Source of the DNA: an uncultured Bacilli bacterium
Lineage (GTDB): Bacteria > Bacillota_I > Bacilli_A > RF39 > UBA660
DNA length: 64,000 nucleotides
Assembly: GCA_934119965.1 (NCBI GenBank)
Contig: CAKOTA010000001.1
Location: 64,129 to 128,128, forward strand
Direction of reading: 5' to 3'
The notes beneath the pieces are model-generated. The model worked only from the letters and a program-made list of their open reading frames with translations, was not told where the DNA came from and ran no database searches. Made by a program: the position numbers and the translations under genes. Positions 1,941-55,403 of this stretch are shown piece by piece; position 1 is the stretch's first letter, and each line of letters opens with the position of its first letter.

Positions 1941-3380
1941 ATGAATAAAAAATCGCTTAAAAAAAATTATTTTTATAATTTATGTTATCAATTATTTGTA
2001 ATGATTTTACCTTTATTGATTACTCCTTATATTTCTCGTGTTTTAGGCGCTGAAGAGATTGGAATTTATAGTTATACAACTTCAATAACTGCGTTTTTTA
2101 TAATGCTTGGTACATTAGGAATAAATATTTATGGTCAAAGAGAGGTAGCATATGTTCAAGATGATGTAGAAAAAAGAAGTAAAATTTTTTGGGAATTAAT
2201 AATTCTTCGTACTATAACGATAATTATATCTTCAACTATTTATTACTTTTTATTTGTTGTAAATAATAAATATTCATTATTTTATAAAATACTGTTATTT
2301 GAAATAATTGCTTACATTTTTGATATTAGTTGGTTTTTTCAAGGAATGGAAGATTTTAAAAAAGTTGCAATTAGAAATATATTAGTAAAATTTTTATTAA
2401 TGATTCAGATTTTTATATTTGTTAAAAGTGTAAATGATTTATGGATATATATTTTAATATATACTTTATCAATATTTTTTGGTAATTGTACTTTTTGGAT
2501 AAAAATCAAAAAATATGTTATTTTTCCTGAAAAAATAGACTTGAAAAAACATATTAAACCAATGTTACTATTATTTTTACCTCAAGTTGCAGTTCAAATA
2601 TATACTGTTTTAGATAAAACTATGATAGGAATTATTTTAGGAAATATGAGTAAAGTTGGTTATTATGAACAGGCACAAAAAATAGTAAAACTTATTTTAT
2701 CAATTATTACAACTTTTGGAACAGTTATGTTACCAAGAATTTCTTATATTTATGTTAATCAAAATGAAAAAGAACTAAAAGAAAAAATTAATTTAAGTTT
2801 TAATTTTGTTTGGCTTTTAGGCTTTCCAATTGTATTTGGTTTATTATCAATTTCATCAATATTTGTACCTATTTTCTTTGGAAAAGGGTATGATGAAGTT
2901 TCAATATTAATAAAAGTGTTTACCCCAATTGTTTTGATAATTGGTTGCGCTAACGTAATTGGTATTCAATACTTAATTCCAACTAAAAAACAAAATTATT
3001 ATACTTTTTCTGTAATAATTGGTGCTTTAGTTAATGTAGTATTTAACTTAATTTTAATTCCTAATTTTGAGGCAATTGGTGCAGCTATTGCTTCTGTATT
3101 AGCAGAGTTAACAGGTTTATTAATTCAAATTTATTTTGTTAGAAAAATATTTGATTTCAAGTATATTTTTAAAAAATCAATTAATTATTTATTATCAGCT
3201 TTCATAATGTTTATTATTTGTGTATTTATAAATAATGTGATAAGTAATAATTTGATTTCTTTGATATTACAAGTAATTATAGGAATTATGTTATATTTTG
3301 GTATTTTAATACTAATTAAAGATGATTTAATCTTAAAAATATTAAATAGAGGTGACTTAAATGAAAAAAATAGAAACTGA
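1941..3380 (+). CDS. wzx: Polysaccharide flippase, Wzx/MOP superfamily
   Basis: 479 aa with about 12-14 hydrophobic spans. N-terminal LLITPYISRVLGAEEIGIYSY motif is typical of oligosaccharide flippases. Located in the EPS cluster. Confidence 0.75.
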   Translation: MNKKSLKKNYFYNLCYQLFVMILPLLITPYISRVLGAEEIGIYSYTTSITAFFIMLGTLGINIYGQREVAYVQDDVEKRSKIFWELIILRTITIIISSTIYYFLFVVNNKYSLFYKILLFEIIAYIFDISWFFQGMEDFKKVAIRNILVKFLLMIQIFIFVKSVNDLWIYILIYTLSIFFGNCTFWIKIKKYVIFPEKIDLKKHIKPMLLLFLPQVAVQIYTVLDKTMIGIILGNMSKVGYYEQAQKIVKLILSIITTFGTVMLPRISYIYVNQNEKELKEKINLSFNFVWLLGFPIVFGLLSISSIFVPIFFGKGYDEVSILIKVFTPIVLIIGCANVIGIQYLIPTKKQNYYTFSVIIGALVNVVFNLILIPNFEAIGAAIASVLAELTGLLIQIYFVRKIFDFKYIFKKSINYLLSAFIMFIICVFINNVISNNLISLILQVIIGIMLYFGILILIKDDLILKILNRGDLNEKNRN

Positions 3381-4770
3381 CAAAATAGTAGGTATTACTA
3401 CAGGTATCATATTAATTTTATTAACTATTCTTTTAATATTACAACTTAATAATTTAAATATTTTACCACCAAAATATCTATCGTTATTTACATTTATATT
3501 ATTATTATTTAATATACTTTCTATAATTTTTGTATTTATAGATAAAAAAATATTCAAAATTATAGGATATACATTATCAGTTATATTAATAATATTTAAT
3601 TTAATTTTTTGTTACTATATAAAAACAACTAATAATTTTTTAAATAACACTATAGTTAAAGTAAATGAATATACAAATGAATATGTACTAATAACTTTAA
3701 AAGATAGTGAAATTACCGAACTTAAAAACATTAATAAAATTGGTTATTATAGTCAAATACCAAATATAAATGAGGCTTTAGAAAAATTAAAAGAGTTTTC
3801 TAACATTAAATATAATGATTTAAATAAATTAATAGCTGATTTAAATAACAAAAATATAAATGTAATATTATTAGAAAAAAACTTGTATGAATTTATATTT
3901 AACTTAGATAAAAATTTAAATAAAGATGATTATAAAATAATATACGAATTTAGTATTAATATAAAAGAAAATGTTTCTATATCAAAATATAATGATAAAT
4001 TTAATATTTATATTGGAGGACTAGATTTTACAGGAAAAATATATGATTTTAATATGTTAGTTACTATAAATGAAGAAAAATCTAAAATATTACTAACTAG
4101 TATACCAAGAGATTATCATATTGATGTATATGGTAAAAATGGAAAAGACAATATAAATTACCACGGTATGTGGGGAATAACAACAACAATGAAATCATTA
4201 GAACAATTATTTGATACAAAAATAGATTATTACATAAAAATAAACACAACAAGTTTAGTTAAACTAGTTGATATGTTAGGTGGAATAAATTATTGCAGTG
4301 ATTATGAATTTGTTACAACTCACGCATTAGTATTAAACACTTATAACGATAATGGTAAAAAATTATATGTAAAAAAAGGATGTAGAAATTATAATGGTAT
4401 TGAAACTTTAACTATTGCTCGTGAAAGATTAAATATACCTGGTGGTGATATGACAAGACAAGAAAATTGTAGAAAAATATTAATGAGCATAATGAATAAA
4501 ATCGTAAGTTTTGATAGTATTACAAAATACAATGAATTATTAGATAATGTAAGTGATTTATATACTACTAATATACCGAAAGAAACAATAACTGAAATAA
4601 TCAAAAAAACATTAGAAAACAATAATTGGAATATTGAAACTACAGAAGTAACAGGAACTATATCAAAAGGGTATGTTCATTTAAGCAACTATATAGACTA
4701 TATAAATATACCTAATTATGATAGTGTTAATGAAACAAAAAATAAAATAAATGAAAATTTGACAAAATAA
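3361..4770 (+). CDS. LytR-CpsA-Psr (LCP) family glycopolymer transferase with long N-terminal membrane/extracellular extension
   Basis: RBS GAGGTGA. N-terminal TM spans, then the LCP core motifs LTSIPRDYHIDVYG ... TLTIARER. Overlaps the wzx end by 20 nt. Confidence 0.8.
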   Translation: MKKIETDKIVGITTGIILILLTILLILQLNNLNILPPKYLSLFTFILLLFNILSIIFVFIDKKIFKIIGYTLSVILIIFNLIFCYYIKTTNNFLNNTIVKVNEYTNEYVLITLKDSEITELKNINKIGYYSQIPNINEALEKLKEFSNIKYNDLNKLIADLNNKNINVILLEKNLYEFIFNLDKNLNKDDYKIIYEFSINIKENVSISKYNDKFNIYIGGLDFTGKIYDFNMLVTINEEKSKILLTSIPRDYHIDVYGKNGKDNINYHGMWGITTTMKSLEQLFDTKIDYYIKINTTSLVKLVDMLGGINYCSDYEFVTTHALVLNTYNDNGKKLYVKKGCRNYNGIETLTIARERLNIPGGDMTRQENCRKILMSIMNKIVSFDSITKYNELLDNVSDLYTTNIPKETITEIIKKTLENNNWNIETTEVTGTISKGYVHLSNYIDYINIPNYDSVNETKNKINENLTK

Positions 4771-4812
4771 AATATTGCTATATAATAAACAACAATTAAA
4801 GGGGGAAAATTT

Positions 4813-6216
4813 ATGGAAGAAAAAGAATTTGATTTTTCATATATAATGCAAACAATATGGAAAAGATTTTTAATAATACTATTATTTATAATAATAGGCG
4901 TTGGTGCTAGTATATTTTATAACTATGGCGCTAAAATTATTTATGAAAGTGAAACAACATTATACGTTCAACCAGAAGTAAAATCTTCAGAAGTAGATTA
5001 TGAAGGAATATTAACAAATCAAAAAATGGTTAAAACATATACAGAAATAATAAAAAGTAGAAAAATAATTAACAAAGTAAAAGAAAAATTAGAATTAAAT
5101 TTAACTTATGAAGAAATATCTGATATGTTAAAAGTAACATCAGTTAATGATACTGAAATAATAACAATAACAGTTGATAACGAAAGTCCTAAATTAGCAA
5201 TGGATATAGCTAATGAAGTTGCAAATGTATTTATTGAAGAAATAAAAGAAACAATGGAAATAAATAATATTAAAGTAATAGATAAGGCAATAGAAGGAAC
5301 AGAACCAGTATCTCCTAGAGTATTATTTAATTGTATGATTGGTTTTGCAGGTGGACTATTTGTAGGTTTAGCTATTGCATTCTTAATTGAATCAATGGAT
5401 AATAAAATTAAAAATCACGAGGATGTTAAAAAATATCTAAAAATTAAAACTTTAGGAGTTGTACCTCATAATTCAATTGATTATGAAGTATCAGGTAAAA
5501 AGAAAGTATATGTAAATCCAAATGAAGTTAATCTAAAAATAATTAATGATCCAACAAGTGTTGTATCAGAATCAATAAGAATGATAAGAACTAATTTAAA
5601 TTTTTCAGATTTAAAACTAATAAATGTTACATCAACAGTACCAAGTGAAGGTAAATCTGAAGTATTATCTAATTTAGCAATTTCATTTGCGATGCTAGAT
5701 AAAAAAGTATTAGTAGTAGACTGTGATTTAAGAAAACCAAAAGTTCATAGAAATTTTGGATTAACAAGAAAAAGAGGGGTTTCAGATTTAGTTTTAGCTA
5801 AAGGAACACACAAATATACTGAAGCTATTCAAACATATCAAGATAAAGACAAAAAGGTAAGTATTGATATATTATCAGCAGGTTCAAAAATATCAAATCC
5901 TTCTGAATTAATAAACAACAAAGGATTTGCTGAATTATTAAAAGAATTAAGAGAAAATTATGATTTAGTTTTAGTAGATTGTCCTCCAATATCTTCATTA
6001 ACAGATGGTGTATTAGTATCTAAATTATGTGATGGTACAGTTTATGTCATTGAAGCTGAAAGAACAGATCACGGAGTTATAGAAAGTTGTATTGAAGAAC
6101 TTAAAAATAATAATGTATTTGTTTTAGGAGCAGTATTAACAAAAGTAAATATAAAAAGACAAAAGAAACTATATGGATATAAATATGATTATTACTATTC
6201 TAATTATAATAAATAA
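4813..6216 (+). CDS. Fused Wzz/CpsC chain-length modulator plus CpsD-type bacterial tyrosine (BY) autokinase
   Basis: RBS AAGGGGGA. N-terminal Wzz-like domain between two TM spans. Has Walker A PSEGKSEV, Walker A-prime VLVVDCDLRKP and Walker B DLVLVDCPP. C-terminal Tyr cluster is YGYKYDYYYSNYNK. Confidence 0.85.
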   Translation: MEEKEFDFSYIMQTIWKRFLIILLFIIIGVGASIFYNYGAKIIYESETTLYVQPEVKSSEVDYEGILTNQKMVKTYTEIIKSRKIINKVKEKLELNLTYEEISDMLKVTSVNDTEIITITVDNESPKLAMDIANEVANVFIEEIKETMEINNIKVIDKAIEGTEPVSPRVLFNCMIGFAGGLFVGLAIAFLIESMDNKIKNHEDVKKYLKIKTLGVVPHNSIDYEVSGKKKVYVNPNEVNLKIINDPTSVVSESIRMIRTNLNFSDLKLINVTSTVPSEGKSEVLSNLAISFAMLDKKVLVVDCDLRKPKVHRNFGLTRKRGVSDLVLAKGTHKYTEAIQTYQDKDKKVSIDILSAGSKISNPSELINNKGFAELLKELRENYDLVLVDCPPISSLTDGVLVSKLCDGTVYVIEAERTDHGVIESCIEELKNNNVFVLGAVLTKVNIKRQKKLYGYKYDYYYSNYNK

Positions 6217-7723: not shown

Positions 7724-10360
7724 ATGATGACAAAGTACGTTTACAAATTTAAAGAAGGAAATGCTAATATGCGTGAACTACTTGGTGGTAAAGGTGCCAA
7801 TCTAGCTGAAATGGCAAGTTTAGGGTTACCTGTACCAAACGGATTCACAATTACGACAGAAGCATGTACAGCTTACTACAAAGATGGTAAGAAAATAAGT
7901 GAAGCTATTCAAGAAGAAATAATGAGTAACTTACACGAATTAGAAATGGAAATGGGTAAAAAACTAGGTGATGTTAATGATCCATTATTAGTATCAGTAA
8001 GAAGTGGTGCTAGAGCATCTATGCCAGGTATGATGGATACAATACTTAATCTAGGATTGAATGATGAAGCAGTAGAAGGATTTGCTAATAAAACAGGAAA
8101 TCCAAGATTTGCTTATGATTCATATAGAAGATTTATCCAAATGTATTCAGATGTAGTAATGGAAGTTCCAAAATCATTTTTTGAAAAAATCATAGATGAA
8201 ATCAAAGAAGCAAAAGGAATTAAATTCGATACTGAACTTACAGTTGAAGATTTAAAAGAACTAGTAAGAAGATTTAAAGAAGTTTATAAAACTGCTATGA
8301 ATGGAGAAGAATTCCCACAAAATCCAGTAGAACAATTAATGGGTGCTGTAAAAGCAGTATTTAGAAGCTGGGACAATCCAAGAGCAATAGTATATAGAAG
8401 AATGAATGATATTCCAGGAGATTGGGGTACTGCTGTAAATGTTCAATCAATGGTATTTGGTAATAAAGGTGAAACATCAGGTACTGGTGTAGCATTTACG
8501 CGTAATCCATCAACAGGAGAAAAAGGAATATTTGGTGAATATTTAATTAATGCACAAGGTGAAGATGTAGTTGCCGGAGTAAGAACTCCACAACCAATAA
8601 CTAAACTACAAGAAGATTTACCTGAATGCTATAATGAATTTATGGAATTAGCTCATAAACTAGAAAATCATTATAGAGATATGCAAGATATGGAATTCAC
8701 TATTGAAGAAGGTAAACTATATTTCTTACAAACTCGTAATGGTAAAAGAACTGCTCCAGCGGCTATTAAAATTGCTTGTGATTTAGTAGATGAAGGAATG
8801 ATTACTCCTGAAGAAGCAGTACTTAGAATTGAAGCTAAATCATTAGATCAATTATTACATCCAATGTTTGATAGTGAATCACTTAAAAATGGTGAAGTAA
8901 TAGGTCAAGCACTTCCAGCAAGTCCAGGTGCTGCAGCTGGTAAAGTAGTATTTACTGCTGAAGAAGCAAAAAAACTTGGAATAGGTGGAAATGGTGAAAG
9001 AGTTATTTTAGTTAGACTAGAAACAACTCCAGAAGACATCGAAGGTATGGTTGCAAGTCAAGGTATCTTAACAGTTCGTGGTGGTATGACAAGTCATGCT
9101 GCTGTAGTTGCTCGTGGTATGGGAACTTGCTGTGTATCTGGATGTGGTGAAATCAAAATAAATGAAGAAGAAAAACATTTTGAACTAGGTGGTTATACAT
9201 TCCACGAAGGTGACTATATTTCATTAGATGGTACAACTGGAAAAATTTATAAAGGCGATATCAAAACAGTTGAAGCAACTGTAACTGGTGATTTTGGTAG
9301 AATTATGAATTGGGCTGATAAATATAGAACATTAGGTGTTAGAACTAATGCTGATAATCCAAGAGATACTAAAAAAGCAGTTGAATTAGGTGCTGAAGGA
9401 ATTGGTCTATGCCGTACAGAACACATGTTCTTTGATGAAGAAAGAATACCTAAAATAAGAAAAATGATTTTATCTGAAACAGTAGAAGGTAGAACAGAGG
9501 CTTTAAATGAGTTAATACCATTCCAAAAAGGTGATTTTAAAGCAATGTATAAAGAATTAAAAGGATTACCAATGACAGTTCGTTATTTAGATCCACCATT
9601 ACATGAATTTTTACCAACTGCAGAAGAAGATATTATTGCTTTAGCACATGATATGAATGTTACAGTAGAACATTTAAAAAACAAAATAGATGAATTACAT
9701 GAATTCAATCCAATGATGGGACACAGAGGTTGTAGATTAGCTGTTACTTATCCAGAAATAGCTAGAATGCAAACAAGAGCATTAATGGAAGCCGCAATTG
9801 AAGTTCACGAAGAAGATGGATATGATATTACAGTTGAAATTATGATTCCATTAGTTGGCGAAGTAAAAGAACTTAAATTTGTAAAAGATGTTGTTGTTGA
9901 AACAGCAGAACTAGTTAAAAAAGAGAAAAACTCAGATATTAAATATCATATCGGAACAATGATTGAAATACCAAGAGCTGCTATTACAGCTGATAAAATA
10001 GCAACAGAAGCTGAATTCTTTAGCTTTGGTACAAATGATTTAACTCAAATGACATTTGGTTTCTCAAGAGATGATGCTGGTAAATTCTTAGATTCTTATT
10101 ATCAAAATAAGATTTATGAATCTGATCCATTTGCTAAAATCGATTTTGAGGGTGTCGGAGAATTAATTAAAATGGCAGTTAATAAAGGTAAACAAACAAG
10201 ACCTGATATTAAATTAGGAATTTGTGGTGAACATGGTGGTGATCCTGCGTCAGTTGAATTCTGTCATAATACTGGATTAACTTATGTTTCTTGTTCTCCA
10301 TATAGAGTTCCAATTGCTAGATTAGCAGCAGCTCAAGCAGCTATTAAGTCAAATAAATAA
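7724..10360 (+). CDS. ppdK: Pyruvate, phosphate dikinase
   Basis: 878 aa. ATP-grasp N-terminus GGKGANLAEM, phospho-His segment GGMTSHAAVVARGMG, and PEP-utilizer C-terminus GICGEHGGDP. Confidence 0.95.
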   Translation: MMTKYVYKFKEGNANMRELLGGKGANLAEMASLGLPVPNGFTITTEACTAYYKDGKKISEAIQEEIMSNLHELEMEMGKKLGDVNDPLLVSVRSGARASMPGMMDTILNLGLNDEAVEGFANKTGNPRFAYDSYRRFIQMYSDVVMEVPKSFFEKIIDEIKEAKGIKFDTELTVEDLKELVRRFKEVYKTAMNGEEFPQNPVEQLMGAVKAVFRSWDNPRAIVYRRMNDIPGDWGTAVNVQSMVFGNKGETSGTGVAFTRNPSTGEKGIFGEYLINAQGEDVVAGVRTPQPITKLQEDLPECYNEFMELAHKLENHYRDMQDMEFTIEEGKLYFLQTRNGKRTAPAAIKIACDLVDEGMITPEEAVLRIEAKSLDQLLHPMFDSESLKNGEVIGQALPASPGAAAGKVVFTAEEAKKLGIGGNGERVILVRLETTPEDIEGMVASQGILTVRGGMTSHAAVVARGMGTCCVSGCGEIKINEEEKHFELGGYTFHEGDYISLDGTTGKIYKGDIKTVEATVTGDFGRIMNWADKYRTLGVRTNADNPRDTKKAVELGAEGIGLCRTEHMFFDEERIPKIRKMILSETVEGRTEALNELIPFQKGDFKAMYKELKGLPMTVRYLDPPLHEFLPTAEEDIIALAHDMNVTVEHLKNKIDELHEFNPMMGHRGCRLAVTYPEIARMQTRALMEAAIEVHEEDGYDITVEIMIPLVGEVKELKFVKDVVVETAELVKKEKNSDIKYHIGTMIEIPRAAITADKIATEAEFFSFGTNDLTQMTFGFSRDDAGKFLDSYYQNKIYESDPFAKIDFEGVGELIKMAVNKGKQTRPDIKLGICGEHGGDPASVEFCHNTGLTYVSCSPYRVPIARLAAAQAAIKSNK

Positions 10361-49065: not shown

Positions 49066-49812
49066 ATGGAAACAATTAATATCCGTTATTTAGACTATAA
49101 TCATAATGCCATTTGTAGTTCTGAGGCAATGTTATATAATTCTTCGCTTGGTCTTTTTAAACGTTTTAATATAAATACTCCAATGCATATAAAAGAAAAT
49201 AAAAAAAGAAAACTATTAGAACTAGAAAAAATTACTATATTGAAACAATATTATAACGAAATAATTTGTTTAGTAAACAATTATACTGATGAATATTTAG
49301 CAGGATATGTTATCAAACCAAGTAATGGATATCCGTTAGATGAAACCTTTTTACTTCCAGAAGAAAAAATAAAAATATTAAAAAGATTAAAAGAAATAAT
49401 TTCACTTTTTGAGAAAAATGGAGTTATATATGAAGATATTCATTTTGATAATATTTATTATGATGAAAAAAGTGATAAATTAGAACTCATTGATATTGAT
49501 AATATAGAAATTAATGGTTATAAAAAAGATTTGGAATCATTTTTAACTAGAAAATATTATATGTATGGCGGCAAAAATGCAAAAAACGCTCGAATATTTA
49601 ATTTTAATTTAATTACATATATGTATTTAACAAATAATTTTTCTAGCTATAATATAAGAGATTTAATAAAAAGTTTTAATAAAGATGTAAGTAAAATAAA
49701 AAACAAAAAAATTTGCAAAATTTTTAATAAATTATTAACTGCTGAGATTAATAGTGAATGTGACAATATATATTTAATTGATATGATAGATGAAAAAATA
49801 CTTAGAAAATAG
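49066..49812 (+). CDS. Protein-kinase-like fold protein (APH/CotS/choline-kinase-type catalytic loop)
   Basis: YEDIHFDN (compare hGDlHxxN) followed 12 aa later by LIDIDN (compare the DFG-equivalent iDfD). 248 aa. Confidence 0.45.
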   Translation: METINIRYLDYNHNAICSSEAMLYNSSLGLFKRFNINTPMHIKENKKRKLLELEKITILKQYYNEIICLVNNYTDEYLAGYVIKPSNGYPLDETFLLPEEKIKILKRLKEIISLFEKNGVIYEDIHFDNIYYDEKSDKLELIDIDNIEINGYKKDLESFLTRKYYMYGGKNAKNARIFNFNLITYMYLTNNFSSYNIRDLIKSFNKDVSKIKNKKICKIFNKLLTAEINSECDNIYLIDMIDEKILRK

Positions 49813-49869: not shown

Positions 49870-50850
49870 ATGTATATGTTTTTTAAAAAAATAAAAAAAC
49901 CATTGTCAATTCTTCTTTTAACTATTTTTATTATGCCAATAAACATACTTGCTTATTCTGATTACATAATTCCAGGTGGCGAAAATATTGGTATAGAAGT
50001 TAAAACAAATGGAGTATTAGTTGTTGGAGTTTATGAAATAGATGGAAAATATCCGTCAGTTGAATCAGGTTTAAAAATTGGTGACACAATTATTAAAGTA
50101 GATGGCAAAAAAATTTCATCAATAAGTGAATTAGGTTCTTCATTAAATAAATCAGAACTACCAATATCATATCTAAGAAATAATAAAGAATATGATACAA
50201 CTCTAAAATTAGTTAATGTTAATGGTGAATATAAAACTGGATTATATGTTAAAGATACAGTAACTGGAGTCGGAACATTAAGTTTTATTGATCCAAATAC
50301 GAAACTATATGGGGCATTAGGTCATGAAATAATAGAATCTAGTACTGGTGTTATGTTAGAAACTAATAATGGTAGTATATTTGAGTCGACCGTTTTAAAT
50401 GTCGAAAGAAGTGAAAATGGTAATCCAGGTAGTAAAATAGCTGATTTAAAATTAGAAAATAAAAAAGGAACTATATTTGAAAATACTAATAAAGGAATAT
50501 TTGGAAAATATACAAGTAGTTTACCAGACAAAAAGCAATATAAGGTAGCAACTCCTAATGAAATTAAAACAGGAGCAGCTAAAATATATACTGTTCTAAA
50601 TGGAAATGAAATAAAAGAGTATTCAATAAATATAATTAAAATAAACAAAAATGATACCAAAAATATTCTATTTGAAATAACAGATAACGAATTATTAAAT
50701 AGAACTGGAGGAATTATACAAGGAATGAGTGGTTCCCCAATTATTCAAGGTGAAAATATAATTGGTGCAGTTACCCATGTTGTAGTTGATAATCCTACTA
50801 GAGGATATGGTATATTTATTACAAAAATGTTAGAAGAAGCAGAAAATTAG
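49870..50850 (+). CDS. spoIVB: SpoIVB-type serine peptidase (S55) with PDZ domain
   Basis: Signal anchor, PDZ (GLKIGDTIIKVDGKKI), GALGHEI (His) and GMSGSPI (Ser). The start may be the second ATG at 49876. Confidence 0.85.
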   Translation: MYMFFKKIKKPLSILLLTIFIMPINILAYSDYIIPGGENIGIEVKTNGVLVVGVYEIDGKYPSVESGLKIGDTIIKVDGKKISSISELGSSLNKSELPISYLRNNKEYDTTLKLVNVNGEYKTGLYVKDTVTGVGTLSFIDPNTKLYGALGHEIIESSTGVMLETNNGSIFESTVLNVERSENGNPGSKIADLKLENKKGTIFENTNKGIFGKYTSSLPDKKQYKVATPNEIKTGAAKIYTVLNGNEIKEYSINIIKINKNDTKNILFEITDNELLNRTGGIIQGMSGSPIIQGENIIGAVTHVVVDNPTRGYGIFITKMLEEAEN

Positions 50851-52328: not shown

Positions 52329-53198
52329 ATGAAAAAGAATAAGGAAAATGGTAATATAGTCATATTAATTATAATATATTTTATATGTTTTATATTTATC
52401 AGTACCACTTATTCTTTTTTTAGTGAACAATTAGAATTAAATGGTACAGTTGGATTTTCTACCAATCAAGATAAACAATATGAAGAAGATCATTTACTTC
52501 AAAATAGTTGGCAACAAGGTAACTATTATTATTATCAATATAATTTAAATGTAAAATATACAGGAAATAATATTATAAGTAGTTGGGCAATAAATATTGA
52601 TGTACCATTAAGTACTGAAGTTACAGGATGTTACAATGCAAATGAATGTATTATAAATGATACTACAATGAGAATTAAAAATGCATCATGGAATGGTAAT
52701 ATGACAAATAATACAATTGTGTCACCAAGTTTTATAATTAAAACAACAGATAATAACTATCAGTTAAAAATTCTATCAGTTAATTTTTATACGGATGATG
52801 ATATTATAGATACAGATGAACCTATTAACCCAGATGAAAATGAGCCAACTGTATCAGGAATTACTGCTAGTTTAAAAACTAACAATTATTGGGGAAACAT
52901 TACTCAATTTGAACTGGAAATTAAAAATGAATCAGATGTAACATTATCTAGTTGGGAACTTAGATATCAAATTCCAACTGGAACTAAAGTAACAAATATT
53001 TGGGGCGGAAATTATATAATTAAAGATAATATATTAATATTAACTGGTATAGAGTGGAGTAAAAGTATACCTGCAGGAAGTATTAATAGTAATGTGGGAT
53101 TTCAAGTTGAAACAACATCTCAAGCACCAACAATGCTTAATTTAATTTCATTTAAAGGAACAAACTCTAATCAGGAAAATGTGGAGATAAAAATATGA
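52329..53198 (+). CDS. Secreted protein with SipW-type signal peptide and two CBM2-like beta-sandwich modules
   Basis: Signal peptide ends TTYSFFSEQLELNGT. The C-terminal module YWGNITQFELEIKNESDVTLSSWELRYQIPTGTKVTNIWGG...WSKSIPAGSINSNVGFQ tracks the CBM2 consensus (W.GF.a.V.V.N...W.l.f..p.G..v...W......WNG.i.aG....FGF). The N-terminal module repeats the pattern (SWQQGNYY...SSWAINIDVP...KNASWNGNM). Confidence 0.55.
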   Translation: MKKNKENGNIVILIIIYFICFIFISTTYSFFSEQLELNGTVGFSTNQDKQYEEDHLLQNSWQQGNYYYYQYNLNVKYTGNNIISSWAINIDVPLSTEVTGCYNANECIINDTTMRIKNASWNGNMTNNTIVSPSFIIKTTDNNYQLKILSVNFYTDDDIIDTDEPINPDENEPTVSGITASLKTNNYWGNITQFELEIKNESDVTLSSWELRYQIPTGTKVTNIWGGNYIIKDNILILTGIEWSKSIPAGSINSNVGFQVETTSQAPTMLNLISFKGTNSNQENVEIKI

Positions 53199-54352
53199 AA
53201 AAGATAGATAGTAGAAATTTAATTATATATATATTGATAATTATCAATTTACTTTTCATTAATTTGATTGGATATAAATATTTTAATAGCCTCACAAATA
53301 ACATTATTAATCCTTTATTTTGGATAGGCATAATGCTATTAAGTCTATATATTTTTAAAAACGATAAACAAAGAATTTCATCAAAAATAAACAAAGAACA
53401 AACAATATTTATAACTATATTAATATATCTAATGATATATTTTGTTCAAGGATTATTTTTTGGATATACAAAAAGTCCATATAATAAAAGTATATATGGA
53501 TTAATTGTAAATATATGGTCATATGTATTTCTTATTATATATCAAGAGTATGTTAGAAATATTCTTAGCAGAAATAGTACTAAAATATTAGTTGTAATCT
53601 TTTTTACTTTAATCGATATAAATTTATATTCATTTTTTAATATAAATGATTCAATATCATTATTTAAACAAATATCTTCAATTTTAATTCCTTCAATAGC
53701 AAGTAATATATTATTAGTATATTTAACTAGTAATTGTGGGTTTATATCTTGCTTACTATATAAGGTTCCAGTCGCTTTAGCAACATTTATATTACCAATA
53801 TTTCCAGATCTCAATTGGTTTTTTATATCAGTTGAACAAACAATATTACCATTTATTACTTATTTAATAATTAAAAATATAGAAGATAAAAGAACAAATA
53901 TTAGAAAAAAGCAATTAAGAAAGAAAAATAAAATTTCAATATTATTAGTGTTTATATTGTTGTTATTTATAGCATTTGTAGCTGGTTTGTTTAAATATAA
54001 ACCTACTTCAATTATGTCGAATAGTATGTATCCAGTTATTAAAAGAGGAGATATAGTTGTTTTAGAAAAAAAATCAATTGAACAATTAAATAATTTAAAT
54101 AAATATGATATAATAAGTTATAGACTTGAGAATATTAATGTTGTTCATAGAATTGTTGCGACTGAAAAACACAACAATGAAATACTATATATAACAAAAG
54201 GTGATAACAATAATATGGCTGATAAAGAAAAAGTCAAACCTAGTCAAATAAATGGAGTAATAAGATTTAAAATACCTAAGTTAGGTTATCCTAGCGTTTG
54301 GTTAAATGAGTTTTTAAATAAAAAACAAACTTTAGTAGAAACAGGAAAGTGA
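53195..54352 (+). CDS. Fusion of a ~245-aa polytopic membrane domain to a SipW-type (archaeal/ER-type, S26B) signal peptidase I
   Basis: ATGA overlap with the upstream gene. About 8 hydrophobic spans are followed by the anchor ISILLVFILLLFIAFVAGLF. Then come SNSMYPVIKRGDIVV, VVHRIV and TKGDNNNMAD, the Ser/His-type peptidase motifs. Confidence 0.7.
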   Translation: MKKIDSRNLIIYILIIINLLFINLIGYKYFNSLTNNIINPLFWIGIMLLSLYIFKNDKQRISSKINKEQTIFITILIYLMIYFVQGLFFGYTKSPYNKSIYGLIVNIWSYVFLIIYQEYVRNILSRNSTKILVVIFFTLIDINLYSFFNINDSISLFKQISSILIPSIASNILLVYLTSNCGFISCLLYKVPVALATFILPIFPDLNWFFISVEQTILPFITYLIIKNIEDKRTNIRKKQLRKKNKISILLVFILLLFIAFVAGLFKYKPTSIMSNSMYPVIKRGDIVVLEKKSIEQLNNLNKYDIISYRLENINVVHRIVATEKHNNEILYITKGDNNNMADKEKVKPSQINGVIRFKIPKLGYPSVWLNEFLNKKQTLVETGK

Positions 54353-54356
54353 TTTG

Positions 54357-55403
54357 ATGGAACAAAGAAGATTAAAATTGATTACAAAAATATTGTTGGT
54401 TTTTATAATAGTATTTTGTTTTACAACTTCAATATTTTTGTTATATTTATACATAGACTATAATAAAAATAAAGATGATAAATTAGTTTATGCATATAAT
54501 ATAAGTCAAAATGTTGACTACTCAGTTAATTTATTTGATAATAGTTTTATTAATGAAAACAATATCAAATCTAATGAAATGTATATATCTGAATTAATTA
54601 AAGATATAAATATTAATTATTATTTTGATTATTCAGCTACTAAAGATGCTAAACTAAAATTTAATTACAAAATAATTGGCACATTGGATGGAACATATCA
54701 AGGAACCAATTCAAATAATGAACAAGGTTCTGTATGGTCAAAAGAATATGTTTTATTAGAAGATGTAAGCAAGGAAATAAATTCTAAAAGTTTTTATATT
54801 AATCAGAATATCATTTTAGATTTTCCAAAGTACAAGGAAGAGGTAGAATCTTTTAAGAAAAAATTCGGAATGTCAGTTTCAACTAAAATGGATATTAAAT
54901 TTATTGTAAATATTAAAGGAAAAATAGATGAAAATGATTTTGACAAAGAAGAAACAATTGATTTAAATTTTCCTTTAGGAGTTCAAGCATTTTCTATATC
55001 TGAAGATTATAAGAAAAATATAAATGATAAGATTGCTACTAAAACAGATGTGAAATTATTTTCTTTCGCAAATATTCCAACAATAATATCGTTATTTGTA
55101 ATTTCTGTTTGTTTATTGATAATTTTTTATAAAAAAATATTTAATTTTAATCAAAAAAATGAATATACAAAAAAATTAGAAAAAATATTAAAGACTTATG
55201 ATGATGTAATTATTGAAATAACGACTCCAGTTAATATTGACGATTATGAAATAATAGAAGTAAAAGGAATTGAAGAAATGGTTGATTTAGAAGAAGAATT
55301 AAGAATTCCAATTAACTTTTATGAACATATACCAAATTATTATGGTGAGTTTACTTTAATTCATAATAATATAGTATATAGATACACATTGGAAGAAAAA
55401 TAA
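54357..55403 (+). CDS. Two-TM protein with large extracellular middle domain (DUF5305-like topology)
   Basis: RBS AGGAAAGTGA. TM near residue 10-35 and again at IPTIISLFVISVCLLIIFY, with an ~85-aa cytoplasmic tail. My recollection that DUF5305 proteins neighbour SipW-type peptidases is unverified. Confidence 0.4.
   Translation: MEQRRLKLITKILLVFIIVFCFTTSIFLLYLYIDYNKNKDDKLVYAYNISQNVDYSVNLFDNSFINENNIKSNEMYISELIKDININYYFDYSATKDAKLKFNYKIIGTLDGTYQGTNSNNEQGSVWSKEYVLLEDVSKEINSKSFYINQNIILDFPKYKEEVESFKKKFGMSVSTKMDIKFIVNIKGKIDENDFDKEETIDLNFPLGVQAFSISEDYKKNINDKIATKTDVKLFSFANIPTIISLFVISVCLLIIFYKKIFNFNQKNEYTKKLEKILKTYDDVIIEITTPVNIDDYEIIEVKGIEEMVDLEEELRIPINFYEHIPNYYGEFTLIHNNIVYRYTLEEK

Follow-up and report, generated by a model that had tools for sequence, protein, structure and literature searches.

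An eight-helix membrane domain with a predicted Rce1-like fold is fused to a signal peptidase in a putative surface-fibre gene cassette of an uncultured Bacilli bacterium

No enzymes other than dedicated signal peptidases are known to be needed for biofilm fibres of the TasA, AbpX and tafi types. We analysed a gene for what appears to be such an enzyme in a 64,000-nucleotide stretch of DNA from an uncultured Bacilli bacterium (contig CAKOTA010000001.1, positions 64,129 to 128,128; the whole stretch is called the window below), where it is the third of four tightly packed same-strand genes. In the tafi system of haloarchaea (Haloarcula), the major subunit stays unprocessed and no fibres form once the signal peptidase TafD has been deleted; TafD has four predicted transmembrane (TM) regions and a C-terminal outer domain, and the tafi operon also encodes a DUF5305 protein, TafG, a domain that is sometimes fused to signal peptidases (PMC11821415). 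A recent preprint (bioRxiv 10.64898/2026.01.04.697558, January 2026) joins AbpX, TasA, tafi and their relatives into one donor-strand-complemented superfamily and calls DUF5305 a putative peptidase accessory subunit. The same preprint gives about two TM helices as typical of prokaryotic signal peptidase I, and mentions in one sentence, the extra helices not being analysed there, that AbpX loci encode a signal peptidase I with ten TM helices plus DUF5305 (bioRxiv 10.64898/2026.01.04.697558). Since multi-TM peptidases of AbpX loci have already been mentioned in that work, their existence is not new.

The cassette in the window resembles the AbpX loci in that a dedicated TIGR02228-type peptidase with many TM helices stands, in Bacillota, beside AbpX-like subunits, minor or tip subunits and DUF5305; it differs in that ten TM helices are counted for the peptidase there and nine for the one here (eight plus the anchor), and homology of the extra helices is assumed. 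With SipW and TafD it shares an S26B Ser-His(-Asp) domain encoded in a subunit operon, TafD being likewise paired with a DUF5305 protein (TafG), but neither has been reported with an N-terminal module of eight TM helices. A third comparison comes from outside fibre biology. Staphylococcus aureus SpdC is a protein of eight TM helices with an Rce1-like fold, and the roles known for it do not involve catalysis. Its partner, the extracellular glucosaminidase SagB, has one TM helix, to which SpdC binds (nine helices in total); SpdC also touches the SagB catalytic domain with its TM3-TM4 loop, and it offers a route along which a membrane-anchored substrate reaches the active site at a set distance (bioRxiv 10.1101/2020.05.21.109470). 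Our overall reading of the fused protein, to which we give an even chance of being right, is that it is a dedicated fibre-subunit signal peptidase with a probably non-catalytic, SpdC-like scaffold that would dock the signal peptides of its substrates.

The fused gene (coordinates of all features are given in Table 1) lies in DNA of about 23% G+C. Its start codon and the stop codon of the gene before it overlap within the 4 bases ATGA, as is typical of translational coupling within an operon. An initial annotation made from the letters alone had proposed about eight TM helices ahead of the usual anchor and a SipW-type peptidase, and this anatomy is borne out. The hydropathy profile and two AlphaFold2 (AF2) models agree on eight helices in residues 6-231, placed by the models at 6-29, 31-53, 64-89, 100-127, 130-148, 153-180, 183-199 and 208-231. 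The mean predicted local distance difference test score (pLDDT) is 85.4 and the predicted TM-score (pTM) 0.74 for the full-length model, and 88.5 and 0.84 for the N-terminal domain modelled alone. Ten of the residues from 227 to 246 are Lys or Arg, and the ninth helix that follows is the highest hydropathy peak of the protein (3.16). The predicted cytoplasmic loops hold 21 Lys plus Arg residues vs 4 in the outer loops, and the same inside-positive bias is seen on average across 122 diverse full-length relatives that we aligned (alignment A5). By the positive-inside rule the eight-helix domain therefore has both of its ends in the cytoplasm, and the peptidase, which follows the ninth helix, lies outside. 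No C-terminal TM helix was seen in any family member inspected, so that the total is nine.

The C-terminal part is, judged by its sequence, an intact signal peptidase I of the endoplasmic reticulum (ER)/archaeal/SipW type (S26B), and is predicted to be active in cleavage. Residues 247-372 match TIGR02228 ('signal peptidase I, archaeal/ER type') at E 2e-23 (83 bits; cut-off 51.85), and Pfam Peptidase_S26 is also matched above its threshold (29.5 vs 22.9). The S26 serine box reads S275-N-S277-M-Y-P, the histidine box V-H318-R319 (His, not Lys) and the GDNN...D motif G336-D337-N-N...D343; S277, M278, H318, R319, G336, D337 and D343 are all invariant in the 122 sequences. The best structural match of the peptidase domain is human SEC11A (7p2p_A, E 7.8e-5), and the second best is SipA, a pilus-assembly signal peptidase homologue. 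Orthology to Bacillus SipW itself (NF046067) was rejected, the score being 62 bits against an equivalog cut-off of 190, although the type of enzyme is the same.

The fusion is not peculiar to this locus; it is the rule across a very large family, and multi-TM peptidases are also on record for AbpX loci in the 2026 preprint. When only residues 1-245 served as the query of a word-indexed search, 69 proteins were returned, with identities down to 29%; apart from a few shorter, cut entries these are 353-395 residues long, and the fusion is present in all the full-length ones. A profile built from the N-terminal domain only (A3) was also searched exhaustively with HMMER against 1.84 billion representatives of clusters at 50% identity. 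It returned 1,547 representative proteins at E <= 1e-3 and 1,176 at E <= 1e-10, and among the best 150 of the 1,547 almost all are 370-399 residues long, that is, of fusion length; a second profile search gave the same picture. All 122 of the aligned members carry the S26 domain. The proteins listed contain no convincing case of the N-terminal domain standing alone or joined to another partner: the short matches of 233-289 residues, which we considered as stand-alone copies, end within the linker, within the S26 domain or in frameshifted tails, and are therefore fragments. The sole name that we found attached to proteins of this family is the NCBI label 'signal peptidase I', given to one in a Candidatus Pelethosoma metagenome-assembled genome (MAG).

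These counts bear directly on the proposal that an assembly or frameshift error has joined a membrane-protein gene to a sipW gene. The unusual length of the protein is the only thing that speaks for such an error, and the same single open reading frame (ORF) of 376-395 residues recurs in hundreds of independent assemblies from several sources, at identities down to about 27%; on the related locus L003, a scaffold with frameshifts in other genes, it too is unbroken. Since the fusion is kept across relatives an assembly artefact is excluded, and we attach practically no credence to it.

The N-terminal domain belongs, as had been proposed, to an undescribed family. It matches no Pfam or NCBIfam family at a meaningful score, and its profile finds no PDB sequence at E values up to 10. 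Scanned even at E 10, none of the 122 members matches the CPBP family PF02517, and no other membrane family appears consistently. Weak matches to TIGR04002 and ABZJ_00895 fall far under the cut-offs of those families, and a Pfam AgrB match (E 0.0043, 16.9 bits vs 23) is taken as a chance match since AgrB did not recur in the 122-member scan.

When the AF2 model of the domain was compared with the PDB by Foldseek, the top match was a CAAX protease, Methanococcus maripaludis Rce1 (chains C and F of 4cad), with TM-scores of 0.51-0.53 in both normalisations, 263 aligned columns that take in the whole domain, and a probability of 0.93-0.97. Other membrane proteins reach at most 0.38, transporters at most 0.27 and APH-1 (8oqy_C) 0.33. 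On the strength of this model comparison we consider it probable that the fold is Rce1/CPBP-like. Two unnamed phage-metagenome proteins of about 260-280 residues in BFVD, A0A8S5VUJ7 and A0A8S5VSK5, have TM-scores of 0.54 and 0.48 to the eight-helix model, which is as close as Rce1 comes; either CPBP-like proteins of phages or free-standing relatives of the domain might be behind these matches.

The near-invariant positions of the domain are G86, G90, N106, E118, R121, Y176, P201 and P204, and the only near-invariant charged pair among them is E118-x-x-R121 on TM4; after a short basic cytoplasmic loop there follows, on TM5, F137-x-x-x-[D/E]141. Rce1 and CPBP proteins likewise are bundles of eight TM helices in which TM4 ends, on the cytoplasmic side, in an acidic-x-x-Arg motif and a basic loop leads on to TM5 with its F-x-x-x-polar motif; here, in contrast, the first motif is ExxR, one Glu and one residue shorter than EExxxR, and the domain is fused to another protease. 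The two motifs look, from the alignment, like degenerate CPBP motifs, although the comparison of profiles is not significant. The earlier statement that the domain has no obvious CPBP motif is too strong in view of ExxR and Fxxx[D/E] at the places of the CPBP motifs within a predicted Rce1-like fold. Among the polar landmarks that had been singled out, QEYVRN is conserved (it contains E118 and R121), and TSNCGFISC and SVEQT are not. On the outer face the best-conserved elements are the TM3-TM4 loop GLFFGYxKSPY (G86, G90, Y96) and the TM7-TM8 loop LPIFPDLDW (P201, P204, W208), which pair as a small two-stranded sheet in both AF2 models.

The domain in the window has no His at all in residues 1-245, as the initial annotation had said, and 22 of the 122 relatives are likewise free of His in this domain. 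There is no conserved His column among the 122 (the highest, 39%, is at position 98 in an outer loop) and no conserved Cys column (30/122 at best), so that the absence of an exosortase Cys-Arg-His motif also holds for the family. Identity as an exosortase or archaeosortase was rejected for want of a conserved Cys or His for that set, and the neighbouring 177-residue and 289-residue proteins do not look like substrates of such enzymes: they end in polar residues (...FDYAQKTE and ...NVEIKI), with no C-terminal hydrophobic helix.

One alternative is that the eight-helix domain is itself an active, histidine-free intramembrane protease. It would use E118, perhaps together with an acidic residue 141, and work alongside the S26 domain; such an enzyme might degrade the released signal peptides of a very abundant fibre subunit or cut the substrate a second time. 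In its favour, the nearest known fold is that of a glutamate-dependent intramembrane protease, E118 and R121 occupy the position of the CPBP catalytic motif, and strict conservation of a buried Glu/Arg pair would be unusual for a passive scaffold. Catalysis by Rce1 has, however, been ascribed to E140, H173, H227 and N231 (PMC5874806), and three of these four residues are without counterpart in the N-terminal domain; in particular, no equivalent His is conserved. Position 141, moreover, varies among D, E, N and S. For the same reasons, together with the absence of profile similarity, we rejected the domain as a CPBP protein proper (PF02517), whose motif 2 and 3 residues His, His and Asn it lacks. 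We regard the active-protease explanation as quite unlikely, in either of its versions.

Several results weigh against our own reading of the domain as an Rce1-like, probably non-catalytic scaffold, and we collect them here. The 4cad match is borderline (Foldseek E 0.2-0.4, TM-score about 0.5) and was made with a predicted model; since the E value is not significant and the root-mean-square deviation is 6.2 Å, it indicates a fold-level resemblance to Rce1 and no proof of homology. At the level of sequence a link to CPBP is absent, not only in the PF02517 scan but also in hhalign comparisons of the domain with nine CPBPs, where the probability was 0.4% with an 18-sequence profile and 0.3% with the 122-sequence profile. 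Although not significant (E 0.22), the top local hhalign alignment is still informative, for in it Q-E118-Y-x-R121 falls on P-I-x-E-E-I-x-F-R, and F137-x-x-x-D141 on the CPBP F-x-x-x-H of the next helix. An acidic residue at position 141 is found in no more than 88 of the 122 sequences. Finally, the near-invariant E118, R121 and N106 are also compatible with a catalytic or a transport role.

The comparison set behind the hhalign result (A6) is an alignment of nine plasmid genes annotated as CPBP family intramembrane glutamic endopeptidase / type II CAAX endopeptidase, drawn from 1,607 plasmid records that were retrieved with the second CPBP consensus we devised (the first had no tblastn match). 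Its invariant residues are exactly the CPBP motifs EE...R, F...H and H...N, and as a positive control its profile finds 4cad at E 7.5e-9. A yeast Rce1 sequence with the catalytic residues at their published positions gave no PDB match and no hhalign signal against the N-terminal domain. A search by motif and TM count found no CPBP gene elsewhere in the window or in the related loci.

Taken at face value, the negative profile-profile comparisons and the Foldseek E value would suit the view that the likeness to Rce1 is a coincidence, helical bundles being able to converge on like shapes, and that the domain is a polytopic module without kinship to Rce1, one that might, for example, interact with lipids or the envelope or be regulatory, and whose function is not tied to the signal peptide. 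Yet the match takes all eight helices in order over the 263 columns, no other membrane protein scores nearly as high, and the helices with the conserved charged residues are those that bear the CPBP motifs. That the domain is obligatorily fused to S26 in more than 1,000 clusters also speaks for a function linked with cleavage. We therefore hold coincidence to be unlikely. We read the domain as a histidine-free form that either is related to the CPBP fold, with strong divergence, or mimics it; on common ancestry with CPBP we find ourselves evenly divided.

The anatomy, the intact S26 catalytic residues, the retention of fusion and cassette among relatives and the likeness of the predicted fold to Rce1 are observations; docking of substrates by the module, its lack of catalysis and the formation of fibres are proposals built on them. 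If the domain is such a scaffold, the following sequence of events can be proposed. The outer S26 domain would remove the signal peptide of the subunits, as TafD and SipW do for theirs, and this would free an N-terminal donor strand for polymerisation of the subunits. The eight-helix module would be a built-in, non-catalytic scaffold that receives the signal-peptide helix of the cognate subunits while this is still embedded in the membrane, and that keeps the cleavage site aligned, on the outer face, with the active site of the peptidase. More speculatively, the cluster of E118, R121 and [D/E]141 near the cytoplasmic face might bind the basic N-region of the signal peptides (MRKDTNKN... and MKKNKENGN...). 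Such an arrangement would be a covalent version of S. aureus SpdC-SagB, which by its published description has the same parts list, an eight-TM Rce1-like part plus an extracellular hydrolase anchored by one TM helix. The TM3-TM4 loop, with which SpdC touches SagB, is one of the most conserved stretches in the family studied here. The two systems differ in that SpdC and SagB are two polypeptides, a glucosaminidase among them, that act on lipid-linked peptidoglycan, whereas here one chain with a peptidase would act on what is presumed to be a signal-peptide substrate. APH-1 is a non-catalytic scaffold of a membrane protease complex, gamma-secretase. It has been described as a relative within the CPBP superfamily (Pei et al. 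2011, cited in PMC5874806). Unlike the domain discussed here, APH-1 has seven TM helices, is eukaryotic, and is the unfused partner of an aspartyl protease.

An Rce1-like module welded to a peptidase in at least 1,547 clusters suggests that signal peptides are recognised or handled within the membrane during assembly. If that is true, it would be the second case, after SpdC-SagB, of a disabled CAAX-protease fold that aims an extracellular hydrolase at a membrane-anchored substrate, and since both parts are in one polypeptide the scaffold idea could easily be tested by truncation and point mutation. In the literature searched we found no paper that combines a signal peptidase, CPBP and TasA, and what appears to be new is how large the family is, the assignment of its fold, the E118-x-x-R121/F137-x-x-x-[D/E]141 signature and the model patterned on SpdC.

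The other genes of the cassette indicate what the substrates might be. Gene 1 encodes a putative major fibre subunit with a signal peptide that ends ...MSVGYAALAEQLTINGTAG, a predicted donor strand after it (VGYA/ALAEQLTINGTA; cleavage sites are marked by a slash), and a core of the form PG-x10-N-G-G-T-I-D-A, a beta-sandwich motif. Analogy with TasA (...GGTWA/AFND) and AbpX (...TYA/QWSE) suggests cleavage after G-Y-A, which would leave A-L-A-E-Q-L-T-I-N-G; cleavage after A-L-A is equally plausible. When the family alignment of gene 1 (A4) was compared with Pyrodictium abyssi AbpX, a fibre protein characterised by cryo-EM whose sequence was taken from the supplement of the AbpX preprint (bioRxiv 10.64898/2026.01.04.697558), hhalign gave a probability of 84% (E 7.6e-6, 131 columns), with an alignment that spans the signal peptide, the donor strand and the PG...N.GTI.A core. 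Gene 1 itself has a weak match to NCBIfam TasA, and members of A4 have weak matches to Ig-like, DUF11 and CARDB families and, in one case, to Peptidase_M73 (camelysin/TasA). PDB sequence searches with the protein and with the family profile gave nothing meaningful, the AbpX structures 9SJ2 and 9RHP not being matched. Together, these sequence comparisons give moderate though not decisive grounds for placing gene 1 in the AbpX/TasA superfamily.

Gene 2 has a signal peptide and donor strand of the same kind, TTYS/FFSEQLELNGTV, on a different body: only its first ~43 residues align with the gene 1 family (hhalign E 2.2e-4, 32 columns), and Pfam CBM_2 is matched in two stretches (E 3.2e-19). A donor strand on a different body fits what is expected of a tip or adaptor subunit, which we infer from the sequence gene 2 to be. 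Related locus L006 has an equivalent of 292 residues (5051-5929) in the same position. A CBM2 domain (cellulose/chitin-binding) behind a TasA-type donor strand in a gut bacterium hints at a carbohydrate-binding adhesive fibre. Gene 4 is listed with a TTG start at 54354, one base past the peptidase stop; the ATG at 54357 is the likelier start.

Conservation of the gene order joins the fused peptidase to these neighbours. The order of small subunit genes, fused peptidase and DUF5305 recurs in L001/L002 (33% identity), L003-L005 (36%) and L006 (50%), the flanking genes being otherwise unrelated among these three sets of loci; a homologue of gene 1 lies upstream of the fused peptidase in L001, L003 and L006, and the DUF5305 gene directly downstream in L001, L002, L003, L005 and L006. 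No terminator-like site lies between the cassette genes (the sole one in the cassette is within the peptidase ORF), and scans of this AT-rich DNA found promoter-like sites at chance level. The cassette probably builds a surface fibre of the TasA/AbpX type, and with a CBM2-bearing putative tip subunit it is a candidate adhesion fibre of uncultured low-GC gut bacteria.

The cassette also bears on the function that had been guessed for the eight-helix module, namely substrate channelling, polymer export or assembly at the membrane. Since the gene sits among fibre-subunit genes with DUF5305, the guess was sensible in direction; nothing in our results shows export or polymerisation by the N-terminal domain, and docking of the substrate for cleavage is the more economical proposal. 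A version closer to that guess would make the domain an assembly platform or conduit that holds processed subunits and, with DUF5305, couples their cleavage to donor-strand insertion, or that helps to translocate or anchor the growing fibre. The conserved gene order with fibre subunits and DUF5305 would suit this, as would the strongly conserved outer-face loops and the appearance of SipA, which is essential for pilus polymerisation, as second-best structural match of the peptidase domain. Against it, the domain is an eight-helix bundle of 230 residues with no pore- or transporter-like structural match, Bacillus TasA-type fibres assemble with plain SipW, and the sequence indicates no energy source. 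We judge a platform or conduit role to be improbable, to about the degree that an active protease is. Quite unlikely as well, but of interest for what it would imply, is a machine of two proteases, in which a new histidine-free CPBP/Rce1 branch using E118 with R121, N106 and an acidic 141 is coupled to the signal peptidase, or, alternatively, a direct coupling of cleavage to polymerisation; either would be a new mechanistic class of fibre-assembly enzyme, present in more than 1,000 protein clusters.

Table 1. Features of the fused signal peptidase gene, its cassette and a neighbouring gene (positions in the window), and conservation of residues of the N-terminal domain among 122 aligned relatives.
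Feature	Position	Strand	Remarks
Fused signal peptidase	53195..54352	+	Single unbroken ORF, 385 aa plus stop codon
N-terminal eight-TM domain, aa 1-231	53195..53887	+	AF2 models; predicted Rce1-like fold
Basic cytoplasmic linker, 15 residues, aa 232-246	53888..53932	+	Region of lowest pLDDT in the full-length AF2 model
Ninth TM helix ISILLVFILLLFIAFVAGL, aa 247-265	53933..53989	+	Usual N-in/C-out anchor of signal peptidase
Extracytoplasmic S26 catalytic domain, aa 266-385	53990..54349	+	Profile matches and invariant catalytic residues
E118-Y-V-R121 codons	53546..53557	+	ExxR at cytoplasmic end of TM4; E = GAG, R = AGA
Catalytic S277 codon	54023-54025	+	S-x-S-M-x-P box
Catalytic H318 codon	54146-54148	+	H-R box
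Gene 1, putative major fibre subunit, 177 aa	51769..52302	+	AbpX/TasA superfamily (moderate grounds); family alignment A4
Gene 2, putative tip or minor subunit, 289 aa	52329..53198	+	CBM2 domain(s) behind signal peptide
Gene 4, DUF5305 membrane protein, putative peptidase accessory subunit	54354..55403	+	PF17231, E 6e-23
Short radical-SAM/SPASM protein, 265 aa	50895-51692	+	77 bp upstream of cassette; best NCBIfam matches far under cut-offs
G86			120/122 sequences
G90			114/122 sequences
N106			119/122 sequences
E118			120/122 sequences
R121			118/122 sequences, with 3 Lys besides
F137			84/122 sequences
Position 141			D 45, E 43, N 14 of 122 (also S)
Y176			111/122 sequences
Y189			91/122 sequences
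R190			80/122 sequences
P201			119/122 sequences
P204			118/122 sequences

The surroundings of the cassette are ordinary chromosomal genes: the window flanks hold xseA/xseB, a SpoIVB peptidase, cdsA, an M50 site-2 protease and dnaB/dnaI-like genes. Because the radical-SAM/SPASM gene upstream is absent from L001, L003 and L006, it is not counted in the cassette, to which it is probably unrelated. Farther upstream, 49066-49812 (+) encodes a 248-residue protein with a Pfam Pkinase match at E 0.035 and weak matches to NleH and to lanthionine-synthetase kinases, which could be a divergent small kinase-like protein.

On L003, a metagenomic scaffold, priA, xseA and the DUF5305 gene are broken by frameshifts (2680-4928 and 9198-10245). 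Recoding of UGA was considered there and rejected, the splits being frameshifts and not in-frame UGA codons; they are therefore assembly or sequencing errors rather than signs of an alternative genetic code. Among species-representative genomes the nearest is a MAG from the human gut, named 'uncultured Tenericutes bacterium UMGS995', and relatives are filed as Mycoplasmatota incertae sedis. The window also holds, at 49870-50850 (+), a clear SpoIVB sporulation peptidase gene (Peptidase_S55, E 9.6e-72), which L006 has as well, and the lineage looks like spore-forming low-GC Bacillota rather than a mollicute.

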